DNA from: a virus
Lineage: Duplodnaviria > Caudoviricetes
Reading direction: 5' to 3' (one strand)
Length of the DNA: 52,855 nucleotides
IMG/VR virus record: IMGVR_UViG_3300044995_000307
Coordinates: 1-52,855 of that record
In this document: in pieces, positions 12,771 through 44,084 of the stretch
Position numbering within the stretch: position 1 is the first letter of the stretch
Layout of the letters: each line of letters opens with the position of its first letter
Notes under the pieces: model-generated
Database searches by the model: none
Told to the model about the DNA's origin: nothing
What the model saw: only the letters and a program-made list of their open reading frames with translations
Position numbers and translations under genes: made by a program

Positions 12771-15700
12771 TTATATTGCAATAAAATTACCAACAACTGG
12801 GTTATTACCTCTAGTGAGGGTAACTCTATTAATAAACTTCTTAGCAACTTCTGTTAATGTTAATTCAACATCAATAACAGCTGCACCATTTTGAGTAACC
12901 CAAAATGGATTGTTACTTCTGTCGAAAATTATTTTAAAATCTTCAATAGCTCCAAAACCATCTCTAATATTTGCATAATATTGTGTTAATGCAGCTTCAA
13001 CAGTAGTTCTTAAGATATCATTGTTAAATTCAAAAGGGAAATTGTCTAAAATTTGTTCAGTATCAATTTCCATAGTAATCAATGTATCTCTAGCATGAAT
13101 GTTGTTTAAAATACTATTGAATTTTTGATAACTAGTTTCATTACCACCAATAATTACTCTTCCATCAGCTTTTTTATAAATTGGATTTATACCTTTTTCT
13201 TCTAAAGCACCTCTTTGTTCTTTAGTTAAAGGATAAGTAACTCCGCTAACAGCATATTTAGCAGTACCAGTAATAACACCAGAATTAGTACCCGCAACTG
13301 CTTTAAAAGGATTGGAACGATACTTTCTAATAAAATTATTAGAAACAAATGGTGCTGCCACTGGCTCTATAATATCTCCGTTATCTAATCTTACTTCTAG
13401 ATTAGGGAAGAAGAAACCAACAAATGATGCACCTTGTTCTTCTTCTGGAAGGGTATATAGGAAAGTAGGATTCTCTGCAATATTACCACCATCATTAATA
13501 TACTCAATATTAAGTACTGGTAATGGATCAGAAGGACTAGGAGTATCAGTAAATCTAGGATCTTGGCTATCTCTAAATTCTTGTACTGTAGGAGTATTTA
13601 AAATACCAAGACATTTTTGTCTCTTTTTAATAAATTTAGATAATATACTTTTAGAATTTGGTTCTAACCCATGATTAAATGTATCAACAAAATATCTAAA
13701 GCTAATCATTTCTGGATCAGCCATAGCTTCAGCTAAGTTAGTTTCTGTTAAAACAGAATAAATTTCTTTCATTCTAGCATTAGTTCCATCTGGCATGTGA
13801 GATGGTTTAACAGTATACCCTTCTAATGTAGTAATATCAAAAGTATTAAACATTTGAGCTAAAGGAATAAACCTTTCAACTTGAGTATTAGAGTTTACAT
13901 CAACAAATAGTTTTATGGTATTATCACATTCTACATCTAAATGAGTTGGAACTGGAGACCCATGTCTTTTAATAGACAAAATTCTTGCCATTATAGGATC
14001 TCCATTTACATCTTCTCCACTAAGATAATGACCAACTTTTATATCATTTACAAAAGATATTGGTATTCTAACAGTTTTTGAATTAACAACTGTTGCTGGT
14101 AACCTTTTATTAATAGAACCTACTAAAGAAATAATATTAAATAAAGTCGGAGTAGTAACTGGATAACCCATAGAATCTAATGTAGATCCAAAAGTAGGTG
14201 CATTACCAGGAGTAATAGGTATAGTTAAATTAGAATCAGTAAAGAATGATATTTTTAATAATTCTCTAAAATCATTTGGTGGGAAAATATTACCTTGTGA
14301 ATTTACTAATTCAAATTTAACATAATAAGTATTTCCAGTTACTTCTACTTTATCGCCATTAGTTAGCTCACCACTCTTCCAGTCTAAATAAACTTGAGAT
14401 TTTTTATCAGCATAATAAAATGTTGATGATCCGTCAATATCAAATCTGTTAATTTCTGAATCATAATGAAAATCACCAGTAGTACCAGTTACTCCACCAG
14501 AAAAAGAACCTGCTGTAGCTGCTACAGTACCAGTTACAGTTACGCTAAGGGTATAACTATTTGCTGTAGCTCCACTGCCAGAAGGTGCTGTAATAGTAAA
14601 GTTAGCTAAGTTACTAGTACCAGTATAACCATGATTACCAGTATTTGCCATAACATCAGCTATTAATCCAGTAGCTACGTCAGTTGGAGTATCTAAGTTT
14701 TGAACAGTGTATGAACCTAAAAGAATAGGAGTTGGCGTATTTGAATATAACTGAATAGTGTTTCCATTAGAACCTGCATTTGTAATAGTACCAGAAGCCG
14801 TTGCTAAAATTTCTGTTACAGGAGGAGACACCCAAAGATCTACAAAAGAACCACTATTGCTATTTTCTAATGATTTGAATTGATTGGTTACAGTAAATGT
14901 AACTGCACTAACTGTTTTTAAAACAGAAGTTACTTGTAAGGCTGGTTCAGTTATTGTAATACCTGCTGCAAGACCAGCAGGAGTAGTAACACCTCTAAAT
15001 AAATCTCCAATCTCTAATTCAGTATGTAATGTATTAAAATTAGGATTAGAGTTAGTTACTTGTACTGTGATACTCTTAACATTAGAAGTTACAGTTACAC
15101 CAGTGGTAGCATGCAGCACAAATGGCGTAAATGAAGATTTTTTAGTATAAGTAAAATCTTGTGTAAGCTTTCTTTTATATGATAAAAAGTTGGCATTGCT
15201 AACATTATTAGTAAGCAATCTGTGTCCAACCATATCAAGATATTTTACATTAGAATTAGTTTCATATGCATCTAATTCTCTCTTATCAATAGCACAAAGA
15301 ACGCCAGTTACTAAAGTTTCTCTATTAATTAAACTTTCTATATCTAATGATTGACCATTCTTGTCTCTAAATTCTGGAATAATACAACCAGTGTATAATC
15401 TAACAAGATTAACATTAGGATTATTAACAAATTCTTCTAACTTAGAAGCTATTAAACCATTATTATCAAAATATTGACCAAAAATAGGATCTGTAGACAA
15501 CTGTGCATATTTTGCTGGACTAAAATCACCATTTATAACATAAACATCAACAAAATAATCCGATATTAAATCTGTAGGTTTAATATATTTTGGTATTAAA
15601 TCCTCATTAACATACCAATCTCTTGCAGTTACAGCAAATTGTCTAGCAAATGATGATTTTTTTATGATAAAGGATAATTTGTTCTTAGAAACATTAGCTA

Positions 15701-16220
15701 AATTTAGTATACTTTTTTGATCTTGAATGTCTCTTGTTGCTAATAAGTAATTTTTATCAGCAAACCAAAATCTCTCTTTATTAAAATAAGATGCTAATAA
15801 TTTTTTCTTTACGTTACCATTTAAAGTGGCTACGTCTGTAGAAAATGATCTATATTCAGCTGTATCAGCATTTATAGTAGGATTACCATTACCGTCTAAT
15901 TCATTATTGACTTTTAATAAATTTAAAGCTATTACTGGACCTTCTTCTAAAGCTACATCTAAAGCTAAATGAAACCAAGAACCTTTTCTTTCAAGAGTGA
16001 TATCTCTTGGTCCGAAAAGTCTTTCTGCAGTTTCTCTATCTCCTTTATTGATGAAAACAGGAGCATTAAATATTCCTGTTTTAGAGTAACCAACAACTAA
16101 TCTGATAGGTTCAGTTGATTGTACATTGGGTGACTTACTAGCATCTCTGTATATTGTATATACACCAGATGCACGAAAAGTAGTAAGTAATGAATTAAGT
16201 GTAATTAAACCTTCTGCCAT
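12771..16220 (-). CDS. Tail sheath protein (T4 gp18-like), enlarged
   Basis: N-terminal SGVYT..D, G.FNAPV..LFG; C-terminal AVAG..SGVI, LEEKGINPI, GNET, LNNIHARD, FEFNN, DRSNN, KFI. Confidence 0.9.
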   Translation of the reverse strand: MAEGLITLNSLLTTFRASGVYTIYRDASKSPNVQSTEPIRLVVGYSKTGIFNAPVFINKGDRETAERLFGPRDITLERKGSWFHLALDVALEEGPVIALNLLKVNNELDGNGNPTINADTAEYRSFSTDVATLNGNVKKKLLASYFNKERFWFADKNYLLATRDIQDQKSILNLANVSKNKLSFIIKKSSFARQFAVTARDWYVNEDLIPKYIKPTDLISDYFVDVYVINGDFSPAKYAQLSTDPIFGQYFDNNGLIASKLEEFVNNPNVNLVRLYTGCIIPEFRDKNGQSLDIESLINRETLVTGVLCAIDKRELDAYETNSNVKYLDMVGHRLLTNNVSNANFLSYKRKLTQDFTYTKKSSFTPFVLHATTGVTVTSNVKSITVQVTNSNPNFNTLHTELEIGDLFRGVTTPAGLAAGITITEPALQVTSVLKTVSAVTFTVTNQFKSLENSNSGSFVDLWVSPPVTEILATASGTITNAGSNGNTIQLYSNTPTPILLGSYTVQNLDTPTDVATGLIADVMANTGNHGYTGTSNLANFTITAPSGSGATANSYTLSVTVTGTVAATAGSFSGGVTGTTGDFHYDSEINRFDIDGSSTFYYADKKSQVYLDWKSGELTNGDKVEVTGNTYYVKFELVNSQGNIFPPNDFRELLKISFFTDSNLTIPITPGNAPTFGSTLDSMGYPVTTPTLFNIISLVGSINKRLPATVVNSKTVRIPISFVNDIKVGHYLSGEDVNGDPIMARILSIKRHGSPVPTHLDVECDNTIKLFVDVNSNTQVERFIPLAQMFNTFDITTLEGYTVKPSHMPDGTNARMKEIYSVLTETNLAEAMADPEMISFRYFVDTFNHGLEPNSKSILSKFIKKRQKCLGILNTPTVQEFRDSQDPRFTDTPSPSDPLPVLNIEYINDGGNIAENPTFLYTLPEEEQGASFVGFFFPNLEVRLDNGDIIEPVAAPFVSNNFIRKYRSNPFKAVAGTNSGVITGTAKYAVSGVTYPLTKEQRGALEEKGINPIYKKADGRVIIGGNETSYQKFNSILNNIHARDTLITMEIDTEQILDNFPFEFNNDILRTTVEAALTQYYANIRDGFGAIEDFKIIFDRSNNPFWVTQNGAAVIDVELTLTEVAKKFINRVTLTRGNNPVVGNFIAI

Positions 16221-20657: not shown

Positions 20658-22346
20658 ATGAGCAACTTAGATTATTTTAAATCATTAATATTAAAAAATA
20701 AATTTTCATATGTTAGTATACTTAAGAAAAATAGTTTATTTGATAGTTTCATGAATAGTTTCCCTTATTTAAAAGATATTTACGGTGACAATATTTCTAA
20801 TAAACAAGTTGCTTGGCATTTAATTAATTCCCCAGAAATACAGATGTGTGATGTCTGTAAAAAAAAGCCAAAATTGTTTATTTACATGAAAGGCAAATAT
20901 GCAGAAACATGTAGTGAGGCTTGTAGGAGAAAGCTTGTTTCATCTAGAATAGATTTTAACGAATTATCAAAAAAAGTAAAACAAACGATAGCTGCTAAGT
21001 ATGGATCAGAAAATTTTTTTAAAACAAAAGAATTTAAAGAAAAAAATAAAGCAACATGTTTAAAAAAATATGGAACTGAATATTATCTTCAAACAGACGA
21101 ATTTAAAGAAAAAAGTAAAGCAACATGTTTGAAAAAATATGGAGTTGACATAGTTTCTAAGTCAGAAAAAATAAAAGAGAAAGTAAAAGAAAATAATCTG
21201 TTAAAATATAAAAAAGAACATTTCTTTCAAACAGAAGAATTTAAAGAAAAAAGTAAAGCAACATGCTTAAAAAAATATGGCACAGAAAAAATATTAGAAA
21301 GTAGCAACCATAAAAATATCCTTTTTAAAAATAATAAACCAGATTATGAGAAAATGCTAAAAGCATTTAATTTTTCTTTAATAAGATATGGCAAAACATG
21401 TGAAATTAGTTGTCAATGTGGAAAGACATTTAACATAAACAGAAATACCTTAAATAATCGAATTTATAAAGGAATTAATATATGTAGAAATTTTTGTGAT
21501 AAAGATATAAAAATATCATCTGGTCATAAAAAATTATTAGAGCAAATCCAAGAATTTTATAAAGGAAATATTTTAATAAATCATAAAATATTTAATCAAG
21601 AGCTAGATATATTTTTACCAGATTTGAACATTGGAATAGAGTACAATGGGTTATATTGGCATGGTGAATTAAAAAAAGAACAAAATTATCATAAAAATAA
21701 GTTTTTGTTTTTTGAAAATATTGGAATTAGACTAATATCTGTTTGGTCTGATGATTTTATCAATAAAAATGATTTAGTAATTAATGTTATTAAAAATGCT
21801 ATTACTGGTGGTGAAAAGATATTTGCTAGAAATTGTCATGTAAAGTTAGTAGAAAAAGAAAAAGAATTTAAATTCTTAGAAGAAAATCATTTACAAGGTT
21901 ATAATGGAAGTACTGTTTGTTATGGCTTATATCATAATGAAGAATTAGTACAATTAATGAGTTTTACATATTGGAAAAGTAAAAAATCATGGGAGATTCA
22001 AAGGTTATGCACAAAAATGGACATTAATGTAATTGGTGGAACAGAAAAATTATGGAAGCATTTTTTATCTAATAATAATCCTAAGCATGTTTTCAGTTAT
22101 TCTTCTTGTGATTATTTTACTGGAAAAGTTTATGAAAAATTAGGAATGAATCTTGAAAAAATTACAGAACCTAGCTACTGGTGGAGTGATGGTTATGAAA
22201 GAATAACTAGGCAATCTGTTCAAAAACATAAGTTAATTAAAATGTTTCCAGAAATGTCTAATATGAGCGAAATAGAAATAATGAAAAGTCTTAAATATTT
22301 TAGAGTGTTTAATTGTGGTAATAAAAAATATTCTATTACATTTTAA
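20658..22346 (+). CDS. Hef-like homing endonuclease-type protein (KYG repeats, Zn ribbon, PD-(D/E)xK-like domain, C-terminal GNAT-like domain)
   Basis: CxxC pairs, EFKEKxKATCLKKYG x3, LDIFLPDLNIGIEYNGLYWH, KIFARNC...NHLQG...WEIQRLC; opposite orientation to neighbours. Confidence 0.75.
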   Translation: MSNLDYFKSLILKNKFSYVSILKKNSLFDSFMNSFPYLKDIYGDNISNKQVAWHLINSPEIQMCDVCKKKPKLFIYMKGKYAETCSEACRRKLVSSRIDFNELSKKVKQTIAAKYGSENFFKTKEFKEKNKATCLKKYGTEYYLQTDEFKEKSKATCLKKYGVDIVSKSEKIKEKVKENNLLKYKKEHFFQTEEFKEKSKATCLKKYGTEKILESSNHKNILFKNNKPDYEKMLKAFNFSLIRYGKTCEISCQCGKTFNINRNTLNNRIYKGINICRNFCDKDIKISSGHKKLLEQIQEFYKGNILINHKIFNQELDIFLPDLNIGIEYNGLYWHGELKKEQNYHKNKFLFFENIGIRLISVWSDDFINKNDLVINVIKNAITGGEKIFARNCHVKLVEKEKEFKFLEENHLQGYNGSTVCYGLYHNEELVQLMSFTYWKSKKSWEIQRLCTKMDINVIGGTEKLWKHFLSNNNPKHVFSYSSCDYFTGKVYEKLGMNLEKITEPSYWWSDGYERITRQSVQKHKLIKMFPEMSNMSEIEIMKSLKYFRVFNCGNKKYSITF

Positions 22347-23432: not shown

Positions 23433-23926
23433 TTTTTGCAGTTATGTATCACTTTTAAAAGATATTCTTTAAAACCACTTTTTTTAGTAATACTTTCATA
23501 AAATACCATTACACTTAAACCTAATGATTTCAAATAATTTATTTTTAATCTATCTTTTTCTCTGATTATGTTTGTATCAATAATCCTATTTTTAATTTTT
23601 ATAAATCTTTCATTAAAAAAAGTAGGATTTACATGAATAACGTCTCCAAAAATTTCTATAATAAGATTTTTATCAGGAAAGAAAAAATCTGCTGAATATT
23701 TGCCAAATCTTTTATTATGTATAAATTTTACATTATTGTTTGATAAAAAGTTAATTAGCTCTAATTCTTGATTACTAATAGAATGTGACTTTTTCTTATT
23801 ACAAAAAATACATGTTTCTTCATTATTTTTAACTCTTTTATTGTATAAACGCTTTGTTATATAATAATGCCTATTACATTTTTCATCGAAGCAATAGTAA
23901 TAGCTACCATATTCTTCTATTACCAT
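23429..23926 (-). CDS. Zn-ribbon plus Vsr/DUF559-like endonuclease
   Basis: C..C pairs, S.QE, YSADFFFPDKNLIIEIFGDVIH, KDRLK..YLKSLG...FYE. Confidence 0.75.
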   Translation of the reverse strand: MVIEEYGSYYYCFDEKCNRHYYITKRLYNKRVKNNEETCIFCNKKKSHSISNQELELINFLSNNNVKFIHNKRFGKYSADFFFPDKNLIIEIFGDVIHVNPTFFNERFIKIKNRIIDTNIIREKDRLKINYLKSLGLSVMVFYESITKKSGFKEYLLKVIHNCKK

Positions 23927-25185
23927 ATTCCACCAAACAATAATATTTCAGCGTTTATTTTAGGTATACCTAATACACTTAGTATATTATTCATTGGATT
24001 TAAAAATACAGCCTCAAATTGTGCTTCATAATTTATTGGCATAGCTATTTCTGCTGGAAAGAATCCTGGAAAGAATCCAAAAACATGTCCATTTTGTGAA
24101 TGATAGTATTGTATTTTGTTACCGCTTTTTATAAATGGGTATTTGCTTTTATAGTTACTATTATATAATAAGTAATTGTAAACAGCAGCTGCTCTAACAT
24201 GCTCTGGACAACCAGATACTAATTTCAATTCTGTAGTATCTGATATAACATACTTGTTATAGTTATTAACTTTCTTAAAAAACGATATGTTTGATATATT
24301 ATTAGTAGTTGTAAATTGATCTTTAATTTCTTTTAGTAATTTAACTAACTTATCAGTATTCATTTCAATACCACTATCCATAATAAATTCTATTGTTCTT
24401 TTCATTTGTTCTCTTACATATTTAGGAGTAGATTTTTTATTTATATCTATGCCTTTGAAAGATAATGATTTTAACCTGTCATTAATTATCTTTCCACTCC
24501 ACATGGAATTTTTTATGTACATTTTTTTTGCTACCCACAAAATAGAATAATTGATTTGTTCTAAAGCTAATTTAAAAGAAGGTTTTCCGTTAGGTCTTTT
24601 AGTAAAAGCACCATACTTTTCACAAAATTTATCTAACATTATAGAATAATAATTGATTAAGCCATAGTGATAAACTTTTAATATGAACTCAAGCTTTACA
24701 TAATCTGGATTATTGTAATTTGGTATTACTTTATAAACCTTTGCTATAGTTTCATCATATGAAGGAGTGTACGTTACATTTTTATAAATTTTATCGAATA
24801 CTACCATTATAGAGTCAGTATCTGCATAATGCACAGTGTCAAAATTATGATAAGCTGGTACTGTACACCCAATCTTAGCTAGTAAAGCTTTGTCTTTAGG
24901 AAATAATTCTTTGAAATAGTAGTTAGTTATGTTTATAGTATATTTTATTAATGATCTTGACTGGGTAGTAACAGACTCTGCTACTCTTCTTTCATATAAT
25001 ATAAATTTTTTAAAACCTAATACGCCATATATTGAATTGAGAATTATTTTCTTTGATTTGTTACCATTATCTCTTATTATTCTTAGTTTCTTTAATCTAT
25101 TAATTTCTGAAAGAATTTCTTCTTTTGAGTATTTTTTACCTTGCTCTAATTTAGAATGATGAAGTTTTTCTTGTACTAAAATCAT
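23920..25185 (-). CDS. Family B DNA polymerase, C-terminal subunit of a split gene (gp43B-like)
   Basis: KIILNSIYG (motif B), YADTDS (motif C), AKKMY, KG.D..KKSTP, P.HVRAA..YN; no exonuclease domain or motif A. Confidence 0.9.
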   Translation of the reverse strand: MILVQEKLHHSKLEQGKKYSKEEILSEINRLKKLRIIRDNGNKSKKIILNSIYGVLGFKKFILYERRVAESVTTQSRSLIKYTINITNYYFKELFPKDKALLAKIGCTVPAYHNFDTVHYADTDSIMVVFDKIYKNVTYTPSYDETIAKVYKVIPNYNNPDYVKLEFILKVYHYGLINYYSIMLDKFCEKYGAFTKRPNGKPSFKLALEQINYSILWVAKKMYIKNSMWSGKIINDRLKSLSFKGIDINKKSTPKYVREQMKRTIEFIMDSGIEMNTDKLVKLLKEIKDQFTTTNNISNISFFKKVNNYNKYVISDTTELKLVSGCPEHVRAAAVYNYLLYNSNYKSKYPFIKSGNKIQYYHSQNGHVFGFFPGFFPAEIAMPINYEAQFEAVFLNPMNNILSVLGIPKINAEILLFGGIW

Positions 25186-25212: not shown

Positions 25213-26847
25213 ATGAATGAAATTACTAGCCTACACAATGAATTAAAAAAATCGACAGAACATATACTTAGACCACAAGTTTTAAGTATGCTTATAAAAA
25301 ATAATGATAAATTGCTTTCCATATTAATGCAATTGACAAAATTTTTAGATAATGAAAAAAACGTTAGTTTCAAAAGAAGATTATGGCACTTTCAAAATAA
25401 TTGTTATGAAAAAGTTTTATGTAAAGAATGTGGTATCAATTATGCTAATTGGTCAGAAAGTAAAGGTTACACATCTTGTTCAAAAAAGTGTACAGAAAAT
25501 AAAAAGAAAAAAATATTCTTAGAAAAATATGGCGTAGATAACCCTAATAAATCACATTTAATTAAAGCTAAAATAGAAGAAACTAATAAAAAGAAATATG
25601 GCAGTAAAACAGTTTTTGGAACTAAACATTTTAAAGATATATTGGGTGTTGATAACCCAATGAAAAGCGACATTATTAAAGAAAAAAGAAAATTAGCTAT
25701 ACTTCAAAAATATGGAGTAGATCATACGTCAAGGACTACTGAAGTAAAAAACAAAATAAAAACATATTTAGAAAATAATAAAAAAGATATTGCTGTAAAA
25801 GTAAAAAAATCTCTAAAGGAAAAATATGGCGTTGATAATCCAATGAAGAGTGATATTATAAAAAATTTAATAAAAGACAAATTTATAAAAAATCATAAGT
25901 TAGATGGATTCACCTTAATTAATATAAATAACGGTAAATTTGAATTTAATTGTCACACATGCAATAATGACTTTGTTATAGATAAAACTACCTATTATAA
26001 TAGAATAAAAAATAACATTAGCATATGTCCAGAGTGTTTTCCTTTAAATAATAAATGGAGTAATTTAGAAAATGAATTACTTAAATTTATTGAAGAAAAT
26101 TATGATGGTGTTATTATTAAAAATGATAGAGAAGTTATAAAACCAGAAGAAATAGACATTTTGTTACCAGAATTAAAAATAGGAATAGAGTTTAATGGCT
26201 TGTACTGGCACAGTAGTATTAACAAAGAAGTTAATTATCATAAAGAAAAAGAATTAGCATGTAGAAAAAAAGGAATCCAATTAATACAAATCTGGGAAGA
26301 TGACTGGATTTATAAAAAAGAAATGATAAAAGGAATACTACTCAACAAATTCAATAAAAGTAAAAAAATATTTGCTAGAAAAACTACATTAAAATTAATT
26401 AACTATAAAGAGTTTAGTAAATTTATAAATGAAAACCATTTGCAAGGAAGTATTCCAGCAAATTTATATTATGGATTGTATAGTGACAATTATTTAGTAT
26501 GTGCTATGAGTTTTAGAAAAGAAAAAGAAATATGGGAAATATCTAGACTAGCTACAAAAATAGGCTATTCAGTAATAGGTGGAGTTAGCAAAATATTAAA
26601 ATCATTTGAAAAATTAGCAAAACCAAAAACTTTAATTTCTTATTGTTGCAAAGATTACTTTAATGGCAACACTTATTTAAACGTTGGTATGAAACTAGTT
26701 AAAGAAACAAAGCCAAGTTTATTTTTTGTTAATAAAAAATTCGATAAGAGAATTAATAGAAGAAGATTACAAAAATCAGACCAATCAGAATATTATAAAG
26801 TTTATAACTCTGGCAATTTGTTGTTCATTAAAGAATACTATTCTTAG
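25213..26847 (+). CDS. Hef-like homing endonuclease-type protein
   Basis: KYGVDNP repeats, CxxC, IDILLPELKIGIEFNGLYWH, WEDDW, KIFARK, NHLQG; paralogue of 20658..22346. Confidence 0.75.
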   Translation: MNEITSLHNELKKSTEHILRPQVLSMLIKNNDKLLSILMQLTKFLDNEKNVSFKRRLWHFQNNCYEKVLCKECGINYANWSESKGYTSCSKKCTENKKKKIFLEKYGVDNPNKSHLIKAKIEETNKKKYGSKTVFGTKHFKDILGVDNPMKSDIIKEKRKLAILQKYGVDHTSRTTEVKNKIKTYLENNKKDIAVKVKKSLKEKYGVDNPMKSDIIKNLIKDKFIKNHKLDGFTLININNGKFEFNCHTCNNDFVIDKTTYYNRIKNNISICPECFPLNNKWSNLENELLKFIEENYDGVIIKNDREVIKPEEIDILLPELKIGIEFNGLYWHSSINKEVNYHKEKELACRKKGIQLIQIWEDDWIYKKEMIKGILLNKFNKSKKIFARKTTLKLINYKEFSKFINENHLQGSIPANLYYGLYSDNYLVCAMSFRKEKEIWEISRLATKIGYSVIGGVSKILKSFEKLAKPKTLISYCCKDYFNGNTYLNVGMKLVKETKPSLFFVNKKFDKRINRRRLQKSDQSEYYKVYNSGNLLFIKEYYS

Positions 26848-32192: not shown

Positions 32193-32702
32193 TTATAGTA
32201 TTTCGTTAATATCAGTGTTACTAGAAATTTTGTCTAAATCATCAAATTTTTCTTTTGGTCTAGGCTGATATATTACATTTCTGCCTTTAGGATATCTTTC
32301 ATTAAGTTTTAATACATTATATTTTATAATATCCATTAAAGTAAAATTAAATAATTTTAATAATACCATATAATACCACAATAAATCTCCCATTTCTGAT
32401 TTTAACTTGCTTTTATCAAGCTTTTTACCATGATAAATTGATTTTCTTATTAAAGAAGTAATTTCTCCAGACTCTTCGTTAATTCCCATTATCACAGAAG
32501 ATAGCTGATCTGAACGATTTTCTATAATAGATTCATTGAATCCTCTTATGCAATACTCTGAATATTTGTTAATATAGTCATTATGACTTCTTGTAATATA
32601 ATTGTTGGTTGGAAAAACTATTTTAAAGAAAAATATTTTAAAAACTTTATACTCTCTTAAAAGAGAATGATCTTTTTTATCTAATAATTCATATAGTCTC
32701 AT
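32193..32702 (-). CDS. MazG-like nucleotide pyrophosphohydrolase (MazZ candidate)
   Basis: GINEESGE...KSEMGDLLWY...NVLKLNERYP acidic ExxE/ExxD pattern. Confidence 0.85.
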   Translation of the reverse strand: MRLYELLDKKDHSLLREYKVFKIFFFKIVFPTNNYITRSHNDYINKYSEYCIRGFNESIIENRSDQLSSVIMGINEESGEITSLIRKSIYHGKKLDKSKLKSEMGDLLWYYMVLLKLFNFTLMDIIKYNVLKLNERYPKGRNVIYQPRPKEKFDDLDKISSNTDINEIL

Positions 32703-34120: not shown

Positions 34121-34818
34121 TGAGAGTGTTTAATTTTTTTTCATTTAGGAATATAAAAAAGAATGAAAAAGGCGATCTTGAATTTACAAAGCCGTTAATA
34201 GAAAATTTCAAAAACGTTACTAAAGAACAATCTTCCTTCATCATTACTAAAGAATTAGAAATGAGACCAGATCTAATATCCAACTTAGTAACAGAAGAAA
34301 ATGAAGATTTTTCTGATATGATATTAAAACAAAATGGATTAGGTTGCTTTACAGAAATAAGAGAAAATATGATTATTGAGATTCCAAATGTAAATTCTGT
34401 ATTAGCACAAATTAAAAAAACCAACCAAAAACAAGAAAATCAATCCAAAAAAGAGCTTAATAAAAAATTACCAATAAAAGATAAACAAAGATTATTAGAA
34501 ATAATAGAAATTAATGAAATAAGAACACCAAACATGGTTGCTGAAGGCTCTTCACCAATAGAGGTTAGCAATGGTGTTATTGAGTTAGGGACTGATGTTG
34601 TTTCTAAAAAATGTAAACAAGATTTAACTAAATCTCAATTAATTTCAGAACAGATAAAGAAAGCTATTAAAGATAAAATAAAAAACCAAAACGATCAAAC
34701 AACTAATTTTGAAGAAATATCAAATGCTTCAAAAAGAGTAGAAGCAACTTTATTTTTTAACAATAAGCAAGCAGAAAAAAATAATATTAGCAACTTTAAA
34801 TTAAACCAATCTTTTTAG
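34120..34818 (+). CDS. Baseplate wedge protein (gp53/LysM-like N-terminus)
   Basis: EMRPDLIS...DMILKQNGL...IRENMIIEIP. Confidence 0.6.
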   Translation: MRVFNFFSFRNIKKNEKGDLEFTKPLIENFKNVTKEQSSFIITKELEMRPDLISNLVTEENEDFSDMILKQNGLGCFTEIRENMIIEIPNVNSVLAQIKKTNQKQENQSKKELNKKLPIKDKQRLLEIIEINEIRTPNMVAEGSSPIEVSNGVIELGTDVVSKKCKQDLTKSQLISEQIKKAIKDKIKNQNDQTTNFEEISNASKRVEATLFFNNKQAEKNNISNFKLNQSF

Positions 34819-36127
34819 CTAAACTCAATCTAATAGATTCTTTTAATTTTAAATCTGATATTATACTATACATTTTTTCTTTATTAAAAGAATCATTATT
34901 TCTAAATATTTCTTTAGTTAATTCATAAGAATTATCTACTCCTTTTATTTTTAAATAAAGTTGAATGAATTCTGAATAAACTTGATAATTGTTATCTAGT
35001 TTTTTTGAATCTTTGTTTACGTAAAGTTCTCTAATACCACTAGAAATATTTTGTATAGCTAAAGATAAATGTGCATAAGGAACTGCTATATTTCTCATGA
35101 TAGTGCTATCACTAAGATCTCTTTGTAATCTAGAAATTTCTAATTCATTTATAAATACATCAAATAAAGCCTTAGAAATTTTTAAATTACCTTCTGCATT
35201 TTCAAATTTTATAGGATTTACTTTATGAGACATAGTACTACTTCCAACTTGCTCTTTATCAACTGCAATTAAAAAATCACCATTATGTATGGAAATCCAA
35301 ATATTTTTACACATGTCTTCAAGTATTATAGCAATTCTTTTGAATTTTTCCATATTATCTCTAATAGAAGAGTAATAATCTATTTGTGAAGTTAACTCAT
35401 AGCTACTATATCTTTCAAAATTGTTTCTGAAATTTGTATTTTCCCTAACGTATCGATTAACAAATGATAAAAAGAAATAATTCCAATCAAATTTAGAATC
35501 TATTAATTTCAAACTAAAGAGATTATTAACAGCACCACCAAATTTTATTTTACCATTTTTTAATTGATCAATTTGATTTTTAATTCTTTCTTTGTAAGTA
35601 GAGAAATATTCATTTACAGTAATTGGTATTGCTATTTTACCATGTGTATATGAAGGTAATTTTGCATTTAAATCAATTGAAGAAAAAGAACTTTCCATAA
35701 CAAAAAGCTCTTTTATTATGTTATTGTTTAATTCTATAGCACAAATATTGTAATAAAGTATGTTTAAATCTTGACTTGTTAAACCAAAATGTAAAAATCT
35801 TGCAAAATTTTGTAAGTTATATTGAGATAATATGTAACTTGCAGTATATTCAATACTTTTTATTTCATGTTTTGTAACAGATTCTTGTTTCTTAAAAAAA
35901 TCTATAATTTTATCTTTTTCTTCTTTATTATTGCGAATATTTTCTTTTATTAAAGAAAATGCTGCTTTTTCGTCTTTAGTTAATTCCTTTTTTAAGTAAT
36001 TTAATAAGAAATGTTCTAAATAACAAATTTCAATATTAATGTATGTTAGTATTTTTTTATCTTCACTGATAATATTATTAATATTTGCTAACTTATCAGA
36101 GTATCTAGAATCTAATGGACTTATCAT
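34796..36127 (-). CDS. purB: Adenylosuccinate lyase (divergent)
   Basis: ISPLDSRY, HFGLTSQD, THG, KFGGA, GSSTMSHKVNPIKFENAEGN, SRLQRDLSDST.MRN. Confidence 0.93.
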   Translation of the reverse strand: MISPLDSRYSDKLANINNIISEDKKILTYINIEICYLEHFLLNYLKKELTKDEKAAFSLIKENIRNNKEEKDKIIDFFKKQESVTKHEIKSIEYTASYILSQYNLQNFARFLHFGLTSQDLNILYYNICAIELNNNIIKELFVMESSFSSIDLNAKLPSYTHGKIAIPITVNEYFSTYKERIKNQIDQLKNGKIKFGGAVNNLFSLKLIDSKFDWNYFFLSFVNRYVRENTNFRNNFERYSSYELTSQIDYYSSIRDNMEKFKRIAIILEDMCKNIWISIHNGDFLIAVDKEQVGSSTMSHKVNPIKFENAEGNLKISKALFDVFINELEISRLQRDLSDSTIMRNIAVPYAHLSLAIQNISSGIRELYVNKDSKKLDNNYQVYSEFIQLYLKIKGVDNSYELTKEIFRNNDSFNKEKMYSIISDLKLKESIRLSLAKKIGLI

Positions 36128-40793: not shown

Positions 40794-41072
40794 ATGACTC
40801 TAGAACAATTAGAAAAAGAAGTTGCGACCGAAACTGGTCTAACTATCAAAGATTCGAAAGCTGCAATCACAGCTATTTCTAAAGCTTTATTAAAAGACTT
40901 AAAGAAAGGTAATTCTACTAGAATTCCTTCTTTGGGAACATTTTCAGTAAAACAGCATAAAGCTAGAACTGGAAAAAACCCAAGAACTCAAGAACCAATT
41001 CAAATTCCTGCTAAAAAAGTTATTGCTTTTAAGGCAGCTAAAGTGGTTCGTGAGGCTATTAACAAAAAATAG
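40794..41072 (+). CDS. hup: HU histone-like DNA-binding protein
   Basis: LGTFSV...ARTGKNPRTQEPIQIPAKKVIAFKA signature. Confidence 0.95.
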   Translation: MTLEQLEKEVATETGLTIKDSKAAITAISKALLKDLKKGNSTRIPSLGTFSVKQHKARTGKNPRTQEPIQIPAKKVIAFKAAKVVREAINKK

Positions 41073-41094
41073 CCTTTTTAAAAAAAAAAGTAAT

Positions 41095-41127
41095 AATGAC
41101 CAACGAAACTAATTCGTTGGTCATTTT
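41095..41127 (+). terminator. Intrinsic terminator after HU
   Basis: aatgaccaacgaa-actaa-ttcgttggtcatt-tt. Confidence 0.8.
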
Positions 41128-41157
41128 ATATTAGTACTTTACTAAAAATCAAATAAT

Positions 41158-41655
41158 ATGAAATATTCTAAATTCAAATCAATCTATTTACAGCTAGAAT
41201 CAATTTCTTCTTATCAAGAATTACCAATAGGTGCTGTTCTTGCAAAAAATCTTTCAAAAATGAAAAAAATTATTACAGAAAAAGAAGAAGAAATTGAAAA
41301 AATAGTACAAAAATATGCAATATTAGATGAAAAAGGTGAATTGCTAGGCATAAAGCAAGAAGATGGCACTAGAAAAGATTTGAAAAAATCTCCATACACT
41401 TATGATGAAATAGACGTAGAAGATAGAGAAAAATTCCAAGAAGAAATTAAAAAAGTAATGGATTCAGAAGTTGAATTTGAACCAATATCAATTTCCTCAT
41501 CTAAAAAAATTTTCGTAAAATACACTAAAGAAGATGATAAAAAAGGCGTAATAACTTTAGAAAGACAATCTACATTAATTGATGAACTAGAGCAAAAACT
41601 AGTACCAGTTGCAATATCGTTTCTAATAGACAATAATATTTTATTAGAAGATTAG
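41158..41655 (+). CDS. Hypothetical protein
   Basis: 165 aa ORF, helical and charged. Confidence 0.7.
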   Translation: MKYSKFKSIYLQLESISSYQELPIGAVLAKNLSKMKKIITEKEEEIEKIVQKYAILDEKGELLGIKQEDGTRKDLKKSPYTYDEIDVEDREKFQEEIKKVMDSEVEFEPISISSSKKIFVKYTKEDDKKGVITLERQSTLIDELEQKLVPVAISFLIDNNILLED

Positions 41656-41670
41656 TGCAATCTTAATAAT

Positions 41671-41708
41671 AATATTCTTTTGGAGGGTTTCCCCTCCAAA
41701 AGAATATT
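41671..41708. terminator. Bidirectional terminator between convergent genes
   Basis: aatattcttttggaggg-tttc-ccctccaaaagaatatt. Confidence 0.85.
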
Positions 41709-41724
41709 TTAAAGTATTACTTTA

Positions 41725-43173
41725 TTAATTATCAAATATAACTTTTGAATCTACAAATTCAGAAGTACCTAATCCGAAAAGATAAACGTTATTATATTTT
41801 TCCATTACTGGCTTAACAAATTGATCTAACCATCGATAACATTTTTGTGATACAAAATCAGTAACCCCTTCCATGTCTGGATCAATCCAATTCATAAAAT
41901 TCATATGAATGTATATTTTATGAATAGTTTGGTTATACTTTATTGCTTCATCAAGATTTATACTAGAGTATGTTGCAACCCTTCTAGGTAATTTAGTAAG
42001 ACTAGTTAATATTGCAGATTCTTTAATAATTATTCCATTTTCTTCTTGTAAGGCTTCCCAAGTAATTTCTTTAGAATCTGGGAAAAAATCTCCGCTGTAT
42101 GAGTCAACTTTATTATAAGGTATTGATGGATATCTGTCTATTAATGGTTTAGTAAGATGTATGTTAGGCCTGCTAGTTACATAGATAAACTTATCTCTAA
42201 TTATTATTTCAAAATAATCGGGCGGATATTCATTAGCAATAGGTTTTATTAATTGTGCTATTTTTTCACTAATAGAGTCAGAATCTTCTGGTAGATTTTC
42301 TCCAAAATGATTCTTATATAACTCTTCAATAGAATAAGAATTTATTGACTCTGATTTGCTAATTAATTTATAAGAAGCTATTCTAATAGGATAAGTTCTA
42401 TCATTAAGGAATACGTTACCAACAACAGATGGTGGTAAAAATCCATCATTTAAAGCAGAACTAACTGTAACATTTCTGCTAGTGGTATAAGGAGCAAATC
42501 TCCAATAATTATTACTTAATGGAAATCCTTGCCCAATAGAGTATAAACCACTTTTACCTTTACTTAATAAGTCTAAAATTTCCTCTTCTACTACACATAC
42601 CATATCCGATATTTCTTTAATATCTTTAGCAGTAACTAAAGTTTTATTTCTAACAGCTTTTTTAGCAAGAACAGCACCACTACCAGAAGCAGTAGTACCA
42701 GTTTTTATAGTTCCATCTCTAAGATCTTCTTCGCTATAATAATTACCATCTAGATCACATAAACCTTTTTCAAAATCTATATCAATTTTTTGAATAACAG
42801 CTGCTCTACTAGAAATTCTTACTTTTGATCTTGGAATACCACAAAATTCTATTTCTTTAAATAAAGATTCTAGTTCAAAACTTGCTCCAGAAGTAATGAA
42901 TATTTTTTCAAGTTTGTCATGGTACAATGAACCGCTAGGTAAAGCTTTAAAAACTATTTCTACTTTTTCTCCATTAGAATTTGTGTCTGTTACCGTATGA
43001 GAAGCATTTGCAGAATTACTAGTCAAAATAAATGAATAATCAGTATTTTTAACTAAAAAAGCTTCTAAAGAGCCTTTACCAGAGCTACCTTGTGCAGCAT
43101 CTAAAAGAAAATTTATTTTACCAGGAATTATGGTATTATTAAGTTTGTTTGAGTAATTAAATTTGTTTTTCAT
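41725..43173 (-). CDS. purZ: PurZ-type adenylosuccinate synthetase homologue (candidate N6-succino-2-amino-dAMP synthetase)
   Basis: LLDAAQGSSGKG (Ser at the PurA Asp13 position), NASHT, LPSG, GTTASGSG, QGFPLS, PYTTSR, RTYPIRIA, SG..PDS.E, TSLTKLPRRV, NFMNW. PurA fold is near certain; the PurZ assignment is probable. Confidence 0.78.
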   Translation of the reverse strand: MKNKFNYSNKLNNTIIPGKINFLLDAAQGSSGKGSLEAFLVKNTDYSFILTSNSANASHTVTDTNSNGEKVEIVFKALPSGSLYHDKLEKIFITSGASFELESLFKEIEFCGIPRSKVRISSRAAVIQKIDIDFEKGLCDLDGNYYSEEDLRDGTIKTGTTASGSGAVLAKKAVRNKTLVTAKDIKEISDMVCVVEEEILDLLSKGKSGLYSIGQGFPLSNNYWRFAPYTTSRNVTVSSALNDGFLPPSVVGNVFLNDRTYPIRIASYKLISKSESINSYSIEELYKNHFGENLPEDSDSISEKIAQLIKPIANEYPPDYFEIIIRDKFIYVTSRPNIHLTKPLIDRYPSIPYNKVDSYSGDFFPDSKEITWEALQEENGIIIKESAILTSLTKLPRRVATYSSINLDEAIKYNQTIHKIYIHMNFMNWIDPDMEGVTDFVSQKCYRWLDQFVKPVMEKYNNVYLFGLGTSEFVDSKVIFDN

Positions 43174-43250
43174 ATTAATTCGTATTATATTAATTAGTAA
43201 AATTTATTTGCCTTAATAAATTTGCTAGTTATAAACTTATTTTATTAAAA

Positions 43251-43282
43251 CTGTAATAATAGAAAATATAATTTTTGTTTCA
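43251..43282 (-). promoter_or_regulatory. Candidate promoter upstream of purZ (TGAAAC...TATTAT)
   Basis: Minus strand reads TGAAACAAAAATTATATTTTCTATTATTACAG; TGAAAC recurs upstream of several other genes. Confidence 0.4.
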
Positions 43283-43323
43283 GTATGTCTATAACAAAGA
43301 TAAAAAAACATAAAATAAAAATA

Positions 43324-43746
43324 TTATTTTGAAAAAATATATTTAAAGGAAATATTAAAAGTACAATTATAAACTATTCCAATAATTAATAAAGACAGTA
43401 ATACTGCTAATACATTGGTATTAACAATAAAAAAACCACACATTATTAAAGAAATTATTTTGATACTTTTAAAAAAATGCCAAGCGTCACAAAATTGAAC
43501 AGGAATATTTATGCCAATTTTAAAAAAAGATATTTTCTTTCTAGAGCCATCTTCATTATACTTATTTTTCCAACCAACATTATAATGATCTGCAAAAAAA
43601 TATAATATGAAATGATGTAATCTGGTTGTTGGCTTTTCTATATTAAATATAGATTTATTCCAATGGAAACATATTTTATCCATTATAGCACTTGAAAAAC
43701 CAGACAATAATGAAAAAAATATCATTAAAAGTATTTTGATTAACAT
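43324..43746 (-). CDS. Membrane protein
   Basis: N- and C-terminal TM helices; AIMD...WKNKY...DAWHFFK. Confidence 0.7.
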   Translation of the reverse strand: MLIKILLMIFFSLLSGFSSAIMDKICFHWNKSIFNIEKPTTRLHHFILYFFADHYNVGWKNKYNEDGSRKKISFFKIGINIPVQFCDAWHFFKSIKIISLIMCGFFIVNTNVLAVLLSLLIIGIVYNCTFNISFKYIFSK

Positions 43747-44084
43747 TATAAAATGTTTTTGTATTCTTTGTAAAGAAGAACTATTATACTAATGTATGTG
43801 CTTAATATTAGATACATTATAATTGACCCAACAGACATTAGTGATAATACAGCAATTCCTATTATTATTAATGGTATTGAATAATATCTTAAAGCAAATA
43901 CATGTAATACAAAAACTATAAAGAAGAATAACCCAAATATTAGATATCCTTCTGAATCTAATTTTTCAGTGTCTTGATTAAAAAATGTACTTATAGATAA
44001 GAAAGTAAAAATAGCAAAGACAATTTTTACTTCTAATTTAGAAGTAAAAATTAAATATTTAATAAAATTAATAATATCCTTCAT
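43746..44084 (-). CDS. Small multi-pass membrane protein
   Basis: 112 aa, mostly hydrophobic. Confidence 0.65.
   Translation of the reverse strand: MKDIINFIKYLIFTSKLEVKIVFAIFTFLSISTFFNQDTEKLDSEGYLIFGLFFFIVFVLHVFALRYYSIPLIIIGIAVLSLMSVGSIIMYLILSTYISIIVLLYKEYKNIL

Follow-up and report, generated by a model that had tools for sequence, protein, structure and literature searches.

A long-form PurZ-type synthetase gene with a candidate lyase partner in an AT-rich phage genome

A PurZ-type synthetase of the long form

The open reading frame (ORF) at 41725-43173 of the window, which is the whole 52,855-nucleotide stretch of phage DNA analyzed here, encodes a protein with the fold and the diagnostic residues of PurZ, the phage enzyme that catalyzes the initial step toward the DNA base 2-aminoadenine (Z), and its similarity to PurZ is far beyond chance. 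The protein is probably an active PurZ-type enzyme that would combine dGMP, aspartate, and (d)ATP to succino-2-amino-dAMP and thereby feed a dZMP pathway. It belongs to a clade of long PurZ proteins that, judged from sequence, is new in form: a domain is inserted, an aromatic residue in the P-loop is lost, and a putative lyase of its own is encoded nearby. A literature search of limited coverage found no prior description of this clade. The window is very AT-rich (25.1% G+C) and amounts to ~34% of a genome. Sequencing runs holding this phage are labeled as hot-spring or microbial-mat metagenomes.

The gene and its motifs are arranged as follows.

41725..43173, minus strand: PurZ-type (succino-2-amino-deoxyadenylate synthase-like) gene, long form, 482 aa; a single ATG ORF, assigned by matches to PF00709, PHROG 1211, NCBIfam PurZ, and PDB sequences, by the model, the fold search, and the tree
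43072..43089, minus strand: P-loop G-S-S-G-K-G, residues 29-34, with Ser30 at the place of the PurA catalytic Asp
42994..43008, minus strand: N-A-S-H-T, residues 56-60, with invariant His59; Asn56 and Ala57 correspond to base-pocket residues for dGMP in S-2L PurZ (PMC8342488, in excerpt)
42526..42540, minus strand: SIGQG, residues 212-216, mapped back from the translated ORF
42379..42399, minus strand: RTYPIRI, residues 259-265, mapped back from the translated ORF
42067..42096, minus strand: SGDFFPDSKE, residues 360-369, mapped back from the translated ORF
41980..42006, minus strand: T-S-L-T-K-L-P-R-R, residues 390-398; Thr390 corresponds to PurZ Thr262/273, and Arg397 and Arg398 are invariant
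41887..41901, minus strand: N-F-M-N-W, residues 425-429, an adenine-type NTP-base motif in place of PurA T-K-L-D

All motifs listed in the initial annotation are present, and mapping of the ORF translation to the window puts GSSGKG at exactly 43072-43089. The ORF is intact: of 83 columns with at least 90% conservation across 60 relatives, 79 are unchanged in it and four carry conservative substitutions.

Family assignment by sequence and fold

By sequence, the best match is phage PurZ. Among PDB sequences, phiVC8 PurZ (6fm1) scores 81.7 bits (E 4.6e-22), S-2L PurZ 63.7 bits, and Pyrococcus PurA 57.2 bits. The NCBIfam PurZ model NF038379 reaches 109.8 bits (E 1.4e-31), far below its curated cut-off of 300 bits, compared to 94.5 bits for archaeal-type PurA and 51.4 bits for bacterial purA TIGR00184 (cut-off 395.55). 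Furthermore, the ORF is matched by PF00709 and by PHROG 1211, annotated as '2-aminooxy adenylosuccinate synthetase' (E 2.5e-26). A search of 1.84 billion proteins gave 929 representative homologs at E <= 1e-3, 46 of them at E <= 1e-30.

The predicted structure has the adenylosuccinate-synthetase fold (pLDDT 94.7, pTM 0.91). Foldseek matches it to PurA, PurZ, and PurZ0 at E <= 4.5e-19, with TM scores by target length of 0.88 for Pyrococcus PurA (5k7x), 0.86 for phiVC8 PurZ (6fm1), 0.82 for S-2L PurZ (7odx), 0.81 for PurZ0 (7vf6), and ~0.58-0.74 for bacterial and eukaryotic PurA. The earlier description of the protein as a PurA fold with PurZ diagnostic residues is upheld by HMMs, sequences of solved structures, the model with its fold search, the residue map, and the tree.

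Conservation of the active site

Residues of the ORF were mapped onto S-2L and phiVC8 PurZ in an alignment with 27 clade, 12 PurZ, three PurZ0, and three bacterial PurA rows. Residue roles were taken from the accessible parts of PMC8342488 and from section 8 of bioRxiv 10.1101/2025.10.22.683976. The background facts given in the initial annotation, including the residues that separate PurZ from PurA, agree with the S-2L residue list in these parts of PMC8342488.

The Ser30 column contains Ser in 27/27 clade, 12/12 PurZ, and 3/3 PurZ0 rows and Asp in all three bacterial PurA rows. Among 255 homologs, 150 of which are the top matches in a set of 1.84 billion representatives, an Asp is found in 0 of 209 recognizable P-loops. 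Besides S30 (Asp in PurA), the PurZ-only residues P262, W372, T390 (Gly in PurA), and F426 (Lys in PurA) occur in every one of the 27 clade rows. N425 and N428 are present in 26 of them, and the N428 column holds Asp in PurA and in the three PurZ0 rows. Asn425, Phe426, and Asn428 correspond to N305/F306/Q308 in S-2L and N294/F295/N297 in phiVC8. The substrate-contact positions specific to PurZ are likewise matched by T390 (S-2L T273), N428 (Q308/N297), F426 (phiVC8 F295), and W429 (phiVC8 Y298). Residues H59, Q215, R397, and R398 are invariant, i.e., the catalytic His, Gln, and Arg-Arg are present; His59 we take to be the catalytic His of PurA. Moreover, Arg175, the Arg contributed by the partner subunit, is conserved, and K-L-P-R-R is identical to S-2L PurZ.

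The dGMP pocket is conserved in G29, S30, N56, A57, T161, Q215, and R264, with I265 in place of Val. In S-2L PurZ, this Val is said to clash with a 2'-OH and the loop at this site is said to exclude ribose (PMC8342488, in excerpt). One contact has changed: the aromatic that stands two residues ahead of the Ser (phiVC8 F12, S-2L Y21) is Gln28 in the ORF, and the column holds Ala in 20, Phe in four, Gln in one, and Asn in one of the 27 clade rows. According to the accessible parts of PMC8342488 and bioRxiv 10.1101/2025.10.22.683976, the aromatic adjoins the 2-amino group, and the former describes S-2L Tyr21 as contributing backbone atoms to the substrate contact.

The initial annotation had pointed to NASHT and TSLT as departures from known PurZ, and both are seen. 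NASHT in place of NAGHT (G51 to Ser58) is typical of the clade (19/27 rows), and within T-S-L-T the Thr aligned with PurZ Thr262/273 is conserved in 27/27. Deviations of this type mark a separate clade and do not on their own point to another substrate.

Phylogenetic position

The tree (LG+G4) comprises 64 rows and is rooted on three bacterial PurA rows, with archaeal PurA outside the sampling. The outgroup includes two ordinary bacterial PurA genes that were retrieved with a short Ser-type protein as query. Thirty-three near-duplicate or further proteins of the locus and P sets were left out, as was the intein-bearing protein of locus L043. The long clade consists of 27 rows with support of 100/99 and is joined by a sister group at 99/98. 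Long clade and classical PurZ together form a clade of 48 rows (95/90), which lies within an ATP-type clade of 54 rows (98/96). PurZ0 (100/99) falls outside the latter. A 100/100 branch splits the three bacterial PurA rows from all 61 Ser-type rows, and the protein thus does not cluster within canonical PurA. Of the two placements proposed in the initial annotation, the tree puts it with PurZ and apart from PurA and PurZ0, and the HMM scores rank PurZ above PurA.

In this phylogeny, the long clade arises from within the radiation of ATP-type PurZ, which does not include PurZ0. This topology suggests that two assayed groups bracket the long clade, a bracket that depends on the bacterial-PurA-only root. 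The clade comprises 146 clusters at 90% identity. When two motifs of the clade were searched in 185,579 cellular genomes, 91 pattern matches resulted, none of which is a relative.

Insertions of the long form

Two insertions set the long form apart in the alignment.

42712..42759, minus strand: first clade-specific insertion C-D-L-D-G-N-Y-Y-S-E-E-D-L-R-D-G, residues 139-154 (16 residues), ahead of the G-T-T-x-S-G substrate loop; present in long-family rows and gapped in the PurZ and PurZ0 alignment rows
42103..42378, minus strand: inserted small alpha/beta domain, residues 266-357 (~92 residues), directly after P-I-R-I265; strands and helices are confidently modeled at 268-357

The second insertion sits in the loop where PurZ has a short insertion of its own, whose role in S-2L is described in the accessible part of PMC8342488. 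Between the anchor motifs, this loop spans 94 residues in the ORF, compared to 3-13 in classical PurZ. All 110 measurable long-family proteins have at least 30 additional residues here. A feature and structure search of the Atlas with residues 264-360 returned nothing above 0.85 by features and nothing above TM 0.47, and thus no fold relative that convinces. As the aromatic is lost and a 92-residue domain occupies the ribose-excluding loop, substrate choice may differ from that of classical PurZ.

Gene content around the synthetase

Three further genes of the window are relevant to a pathway.

34796..36127, minus strand: PurB-like adenylosuccinate lyase, divergent, 443 aa, with Lyase_1 and ASL_C domains
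32193..32702, minus strand: putative MazG-like nucleoside-triphosphate pyrophosphohydrolase, 169 aa, PF03819, PHROG 229
23920..25185, minus strand: piece of a family-B DNA polymerase, PF00136, matching positions 483-839 of 856 in PHROG 262

The lyase scores 281 bits against NCBIfam PRK09285, under the cut-off of 446. Its best PDB adenylosuccinate lyase match has an E value of 2.2e-54, and it keeps the signature loop G-S-S-T-M-x-H-K-V-N-P. Robust PurB-like matches (E <= 2.7e-23) come from seven of 29 related records; among the six that are at least 90% complete, three have such a gene and three lack it. In loci L025-L029, PurZ-like, PurB, and MazG genes lie together within 6 kb. The MazG-like protein was considered as a relative of S-2L MazZ and rejected, with no BLASTP alignment and no useful PDB sequence match. 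Family-A polymerase (PF00476) is found neither in the window nor in the nearest relatives, and the clade carriers that were typed have a family-B polymerase or are without a family-A enzyme. The predicted replicase is not of the DpoZ-type family-A kind.

In the accessible parts of the literature, described Z-DNA phages combine PurZ or PurZ0 with DatZ, MazZ, DUF550, DutZ or DmtZ and usually with the family-A polymerase DpoZ, and PurB of the host is named as the enzyme of the second step. In the window, a DUF550 and an HD protein are not found, which is weak evidence in ~34% of a genome. A tblastn search with the phiVC8 or S-2L reference finds DatZ next to the gene in 0/39 long-family loci, compared to 21/36 of loci L058-L093, most of which are classical PurZ loci. 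Among the 29 related records, phiVC8 DatZ is found in none (a search run without a positive control) and DUF550 exceeds its cut-off in none. No MazZ lies beside the synthetase gene, NDT is found in 0/5 records, and dUTPase in 1/5. As a dATP-removing step was not found in these searches, full replacement of A is doubtful.

HD-domain proteins (PF01966) are matched in 11 of the 29 related records, four of them over the cut-off. As DatZ candidates they were rejected: phmmer at E <= 10 matched neither DatZ to any of the 23 ORFs with a length of 100 aa or more in 10 regions. Five of six inspected HD ORFs are presumably small RelA/SpoT-type HD hydrolases, judged by motif. In one relative (L100), the HD ORF has a DatZ-like H-D-x-x-E motif.

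Proposed function and alternatives

We infer a route in which the synthetase probably acts on dGMP. First, ATP or dATP would phosphorylate the O6 of dGMP. Aspartate would then displace the phosphate to give N6-succino-2-amino-dAMP (dSMP), from which the phage PurB-like lyase would remove fumarate to give dZMP. Finally, kinases would convert dZMP to dZTP, which the family-B polymerase of the phage would insert opposite T. Its MazG-like enzyme may hydrolyze dGTP to provide dGMP for this route, reduce dATP, or both.

Synthetase and lyase might instead boost adenine nucleotides by turning IMP/dIMP into AMP/dAMP for a genome of 75% A+T, with Ser and N-F-x-N-W merely switching the donor to ATP. The base composition would fit, both steps are phage-encoded, the usual dATP-removing Z partners were not found, and the cultured Flavobacterium phage MaF61 has a ribonucleotide reductase near its synthetase/lyase pair. 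We consider this unlikely, since all 27 clade rows have Ser where PurA has its catalytic Asp, the other PurZ-only residues are kept, and the clade is nested among PurZ and not PurA. Moreover, phiVC8 PurZ reportedly loses its substrate selectivity upon the S14D change (section 8 of bioRxiv 10.1101/2025.10.22.683976). In addition, 23 records of the phage collection, several of them probably host DNA, closely match E. coli PurA, and thus a phage wanting PurA activity could keep the ordinary form.

Alternatively, the same chemistry could act on another 6-oxopurine nucleotide, e.g., a ribonucleotide or a modified guanine, and yield a product other than plain 2-aminoadenine. The replaced aromatic, Ser58 in 19/27 rows, the extended ribose-discriminating loop in 110/110 measurable members, and a set of partner genes that differs from that of known Z phages would be compatible with this. 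However, all reported side-chain contacts to the base and the 2-amino group are kept except the aromatic, which in S-2L contributes backbone atoms (PMC8342488, in excerpt), and Ile265 takes up more room than the Val to which a clash with the 2'-OH is ascribed. The 7-deazaguanine transglycosylase (TGT, PF01702) is found in 0/30 records, and the lyase indicates that aspartate donates the amine. We therefore regard another purine as improbable. Use of PurZ chemistry without bulk DNA replacement, i.e., partial Z incorporation or a drain on host dGMP and (d)ATP pools, would fit the searches in which DatZ, DUF550, and DpoZ were not found, but it is very unlikely given a dedicated lyase, which suggests that dZMP is wanted, and a clade that is large and conserved (the 46 closest representatives; 79/83 columns).

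Conversion of dGMP toward dZMP hence remains the favored function. Beyond this, the carriers might form an unrecognized lineage of purine-modified large myoviruses with family-B polymerases, in which long PurZ, with its domain at the sugar-discriminating loop and a pocket opened next to C2 of the purine, and the lyase would place Z at up to ~37% of bases by a novel exclusion of dATP, or would install another purine. We offer this as a speculative proposal with a small chance of being right. If the enzyme is active, PurZ chemistry reaches large phages that have a contractile tail, a T4-type replicase, and a lyase of their own, which raises the question of how adenine is kept out without any known dATPase. 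The domain inserted at the exact ribose-discrimination site of PurZ represents a natural experiment on substrate selection, and the clade has one cultured member, MaF61 on Flavobacterium.

Comparison with known systems

Bacterial PurA (E. coli b4177) shares the superfamily, the catalytic His, Gln, and Arg-Arg, and the partner Arg. It differs in that its P-loop carries Asp, its NTP-base motif is T-K-L-D, and the T390 column holds Gly, whereas the ORF has Ser30 and N-F-M-N-W. The short archaeal PurA of Pyrococcus horikoshii (5K7X/2D7U) is the best structural match (TM 0.88 by target) but uses GTP and IMP according to the entry title, and Asp-type proteins account for 0 of the best 150 representatives. 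PurZ0 (Arthrobacter phage Wayne, Gordonia phages; 7VF6) has the Ser P-loop, Thr at the T390 column, and the fold (TM 0.81) in common with the ORF. However, it keeps Asp at the N428 column, as in T-K-L-D of PurA, and branches outside the 54-row clade (98/96). Its partners are DutZ, DmtZ, and DUF5664 (PMC12884076, sections 24-25).

Classical PurZ of phiVC8 and S-2L provides the best sequence matches among solved structures. Common to both forms are the fold, the Ser P-loop, Thr390, K-L-P-R-R, the dGMP pocket, the partner Arg, and the N-F-x-N-aromatic adenine motif. Nevertheless, identity is only ~28%, over the first half, and the protein has 482 aa compared to 343 and 359 aa in phiVC8 and S-2L. 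The long form adds the 92-residue folded insert and another insert of 16 residues, and the P-loop aromatic is replaced by Gln. In contrast to classical PurZ phages, DatZ/MazZ are not found downstream, and the polymerase is of family B and not family A.

The closest protein in a cultured phage is ORF141 of Flavobacterium phage MaF61 (PQ858689), annotated as 'putative adenosuccinate synthetase'; the protein described here is 42% identical to it along 97% of its own length. The 167.8 kb genome belongs to a phage of myovirus morphology (PMC13269007, in excerpt) and, according to the accessible part of its description, was sequenced on Illumina; the base composition of the virion is not reported there. 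ORF141 falls into the same tree clade as the protein described here, and its insert is shorter, with 65 versus 94 residues between the anchor motifs. MaF61 likewise encodes a PurB-like lyase, ORF149, which lies 12 kb from ORF141.

Gene Content of the Window

The window is linear, with a G+C content of 25.1%, and its 52,855 bases are estimated to represent 34% of a genome (IMG/VR virus record). Its genes include a contractile-tail sheath, helicases, a UvsX-like recombinase, SbcCD and a piece of a family-B polymerase. The features discussed here are:

12771-16220, - strand: tail-sheath protein, 1149 aa, unusually long
20658-22346, + strand: homing/HNH-endonuclease-like ORF (PHROG 3339)
23920-25185, - strand: piece of a family-B DNA polymerase, 421 aa (PF00136; PHROG 262 positions 483-839 of 856)
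25213-26847, + strand: second homing/HNH-endonuclease-like ORF (PHROG 3339)
32193-32702: window-encoded MazG-like pyrophosphohydrolase
34796-36127: PurB-like lyase (Lyase_1 and ASL_C; 281 bits, cut-off 446)
40794-41072, + strand: small HU/IHF-like DNA-binding protein (PHROG 379, E 1e-23)
41725-43173, - strand: PurZ-like ORF, 482 aa

The 421-aa polymerase ORF matches the C-terminal part of a family-B polymerase only and is flanked by both endonuclease-like ORFs (E 8e-99 and 8e-95); homing endonucleases appear to have split or invaded the polymerase gene. In the sheath protein, the sheath-family match (PHROG 34521) is confined to the last ~380 residues. The HU/IHF-like gene is separated from the PurZ-like gene by 650 bases. 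Eight runs, labeled as hot-spring or microbial-mat metagenomes, contain 21-97% of the sampled words of positions 41000-44000. Pairs of equal size could be duplicate deposits of a single data set, and the source sample itself may be among the eight.

Identity of the PurZ-Like Protein

The initial annotation read the product of 41725-43173 (-) as a PurA-fold enzyme with PurZ diagnostic residues. All of its motifs are found in this ORF, with the P-loop G-S-S-G-K-G exactly at 43072-43089, and profile ranks, model fold, residue map and tree support the reading. The Pfam Adenylsucc_synt match is limited to the N-terminal third (E 1.2e-11), and PHROG 1211, which is named for the PurZ reaction, matches with E 2.5e-26. 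Among NCBIfam models, PurZ (109.8 bits) ranks above archaeal-type PurA (94.5) and bacterial purA (51.4), all far under their respective cut-offs. The top sequence matches among solved structures are phiVC8 PurZ (81.7 bits), S-2L PurZ (63.7) and Pyrococcus PurA (57.2). A confident structure model built on 61 relatives (pLDDT 94.7, pTM 0.91) has Pyrococcus PurA, phiVC8 PurZ, S-2L PurZ and PurZ0 as top fold matches (TM-scores by target 0.81-0.88), while bacterial and eukaryotic PurA reach about 0.58-0.74. Fold alone does not tell archaeal PurA and PurZ apart.

Residues named in PMC8342488 and bioRxiv 10.1101/2025.10.22.683976 were placed on a 64-row alignment. The S-2L dGMP pocket described in PMC8342488 (G22, S23, N49, A50, T132, Q190, R240, and V241) has its counterparts in G29, S30, N56, A57, T161, Q215, R264, and I265, and R175 corresponds to the partner-subunit Arg that binds the phosphate. 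The PurZ-only Ser in place of the catalytic Asp, Thr390, Pro262, Trp372, and Phe426 are retained in 27/27 rows of the window's clade; PurA has Gly at the Thr390 column and Lys at the Phe426 column. Asn425 and Asn428 are present in 26/27 clade rows, and the Asn428 column is Asp in 3/3 PurZ0 and 3/3 bacterial PurA rows. Because N-F-M-N-W replaces the Asp-type motif at this column, the sequence argues for ATP or dATP as the probable phosphate donor. One sentence in section 24 of PMC12884076 reverses these preferences, giving ATP for PurZ0 and GTP for PurZ. It is contradicted by ligand-bound PurZ structures (ATP or dATP) and by the introduction of bioRxiv 10.1101/2025.10.22.683976, and the Asp/Asn column of our alignment likewise opposes this assignment.

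Other positions deviate from known PurZ. Two positions ahead of the Ser, where known enzymes have an aromatic residue (phiVC8 F12, S-2L Y21, Trp in PurA), the window protein has Gln and 20/27 clade rows have Ala; S-2L Gly51 is replaced by Ser (Ser58) in 19/27, and S-2L Val241 by Ile in 24/27.

Relatives and Phylogenetic Position

The 90%-identity collection yields 146 matches; in the 50%-identity library, 929 proteins match at E <= 1e-3, of which 415 reach E <= 1e-10 and 46 reach E <= 1e-30. A P-loop is recognizable in 209 of 255 collected homologs, with Ser in 209/209 and Asp in 0/209. Of 65 matching GenBank phage records, only that of Flavobacterium phage MaF61 spans 80% or more of the protein (42% identity). 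When two clade-specific peptide patterns were run against 185,579 prokaryote species, with a single genome per species, none of the 91 pattern matches was a relative.

A careful tree (64 rows, 370 columns, LG+G4) was rooted on bacterial PurA. The three bacterial PurA rows are separated from all 61 Ser-type rows (branch 100/100), and the 27 rows of the window's clade form one branch (100/99). The sister group, joined at 99/98, comprises four viral proteins; at locus L059, the source of one of them, a DatZ-like gene lies immediately downstream. The two branches then group with classical PurZ and another large-phage group (95/90). PurZ0 (100/99) is placed outside the wider 54-row clade (98/96). 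Because, under this root, the two groups with measured activity bracket the window's clade, the economical inference is that it would share their chemistry; the weak point is that the only Asp-type PurA in the tree is bacterial, not archaeal. A second, separate clade of short Ser-type PurZ-like proteins comes from large viral contigs of 65-275 kb (L055, L062, L072, L081, and L084). As a group it is supported at 100/99; its sister is classical PurZ, and DatZ was not found within 10 kb of these five loci.

Proposed Pathway and Partner Genes

In the proposed pathway, the O6 of dGMP would be activated by (d)ATP and dGMP then condensed with aspartate, the phage lyase would free fumarate to give dZMP, and kinases and the family-B polymerase would accomplish the remainder. 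The signature loop G-S-S-T-M-x-H-K-V-N-P is intact in the lyase. No known enzyme for dATP removal was found, which is the chief argument against complete replacement of A by Z. The window contains no DUF550 and no HD protein, and no similarity was found between S-2L MazZ and the MazG-like protein.

Neighborhoods were compared for 80 related viral loci. DatZ adjoins the synthetase in 21/36 loci L058-L093, mostly classical PurZ loci, and in 0/39 long-family loci; within 10 kb of the synthetase, the latter have PurB-like genes in 9/39 and MazG-like genes in 6/39.

Partner genes in whole records of long-family carriers (n = 29, six of them at least 90% complete)
PurB-like, E <= 0.001: 10/29
PurB-like, E <= 2.7e-23: 7/29; 3/6 complete records
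MazG: 10/29, 8 above cut-off
DatZ: 0/29, in a search without positive control
DUF550 above cut-off: 0/29
Family-A polymerase: 6/30, window counted; 0 among the window's nearest relatives

As the gene order around MazG is common to the window and the related locus L025, their linkage is not independent evidence. Since PMC12884076 shows that dATP-removing enzymes were recruited several times independently, an unrecognized one is plausible, possibly the MazG-like protein. A complete 149.5-kb relative (G008) has a PurZ-like, PurB and MazG cluster and encodes a 252-aa HD protein (L100:361-1116, -). Its motif H-D-x-x-E-x-x-x-x-D resembles that of DatZ/YfbR-type enzymes, and the protein is a possible candidate dATPase. 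Small HD proteins of other long-PurZ relatives (L096:507-968, L097:394-963, L098:458-1036, L099:475-963, and L105:185-853) had no phmmer match to DatZ, and their motif suggests RelA/SpoT-type alarmone hydrolases rather than DatZ. That Z:T pairs might stabilize a 25% G+C genome is speculation only.

Comparison With Known PurZ Systems

The window protein carries two insertions. The first, of 16 residues (139-154), lies ahead of the G-T-T-x-S-G loop, and the second comes after P-I-R-I265. Between this anchor and the S-G motif the window protein has 94 residues, compared with 3 in phiVC8 PurZ, 9 in S-2L PurZ, 13 in DMU1 PurZ, and 3 in PurZ0 of Wayne. All 110 measurable proteins from the first 120 matches have 30 or more (30-37 in 68, 50-172 in 42). 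Residues 268-357 are modeled with high confidence as strands and helices, and feature and structure searches found no fold relative of this domain. In S-2L, A242-W250 is a PurZ-specific insertion that draws Val241 toward C2' and disfavors ribonucleotides (PMC8342488); the second insertion of the window protein occupies this loop. Several homologs (P0070, P0111, P0124, P0125, P0128, P0130, P0131, P0138, and others) are 750-850 aa long and align to the query in three separate segments. Precomputed Pfam domains for LAGLIDADG and intein splicing occur in two of them, and thus some phages have inteins inside their PurZ-like genes.

The main texts of the literature searched yielded no description of the long PurZ clade. 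The cultured relative MaF61 encodes the synthetase, a lyase 12 kb from it and a ribonucleotide reductase. The second, lyase step is described as a host function in PMC8342488 and in the introduction of bioRxiv 10.1101/2025.10.22.683976. Relative to known systems, the long clade, its inserted domain and altered P-loop neighbor are new, as is its occurrence in large myoviruses that have a family-B polymerase and lack the Z-cluster partners.
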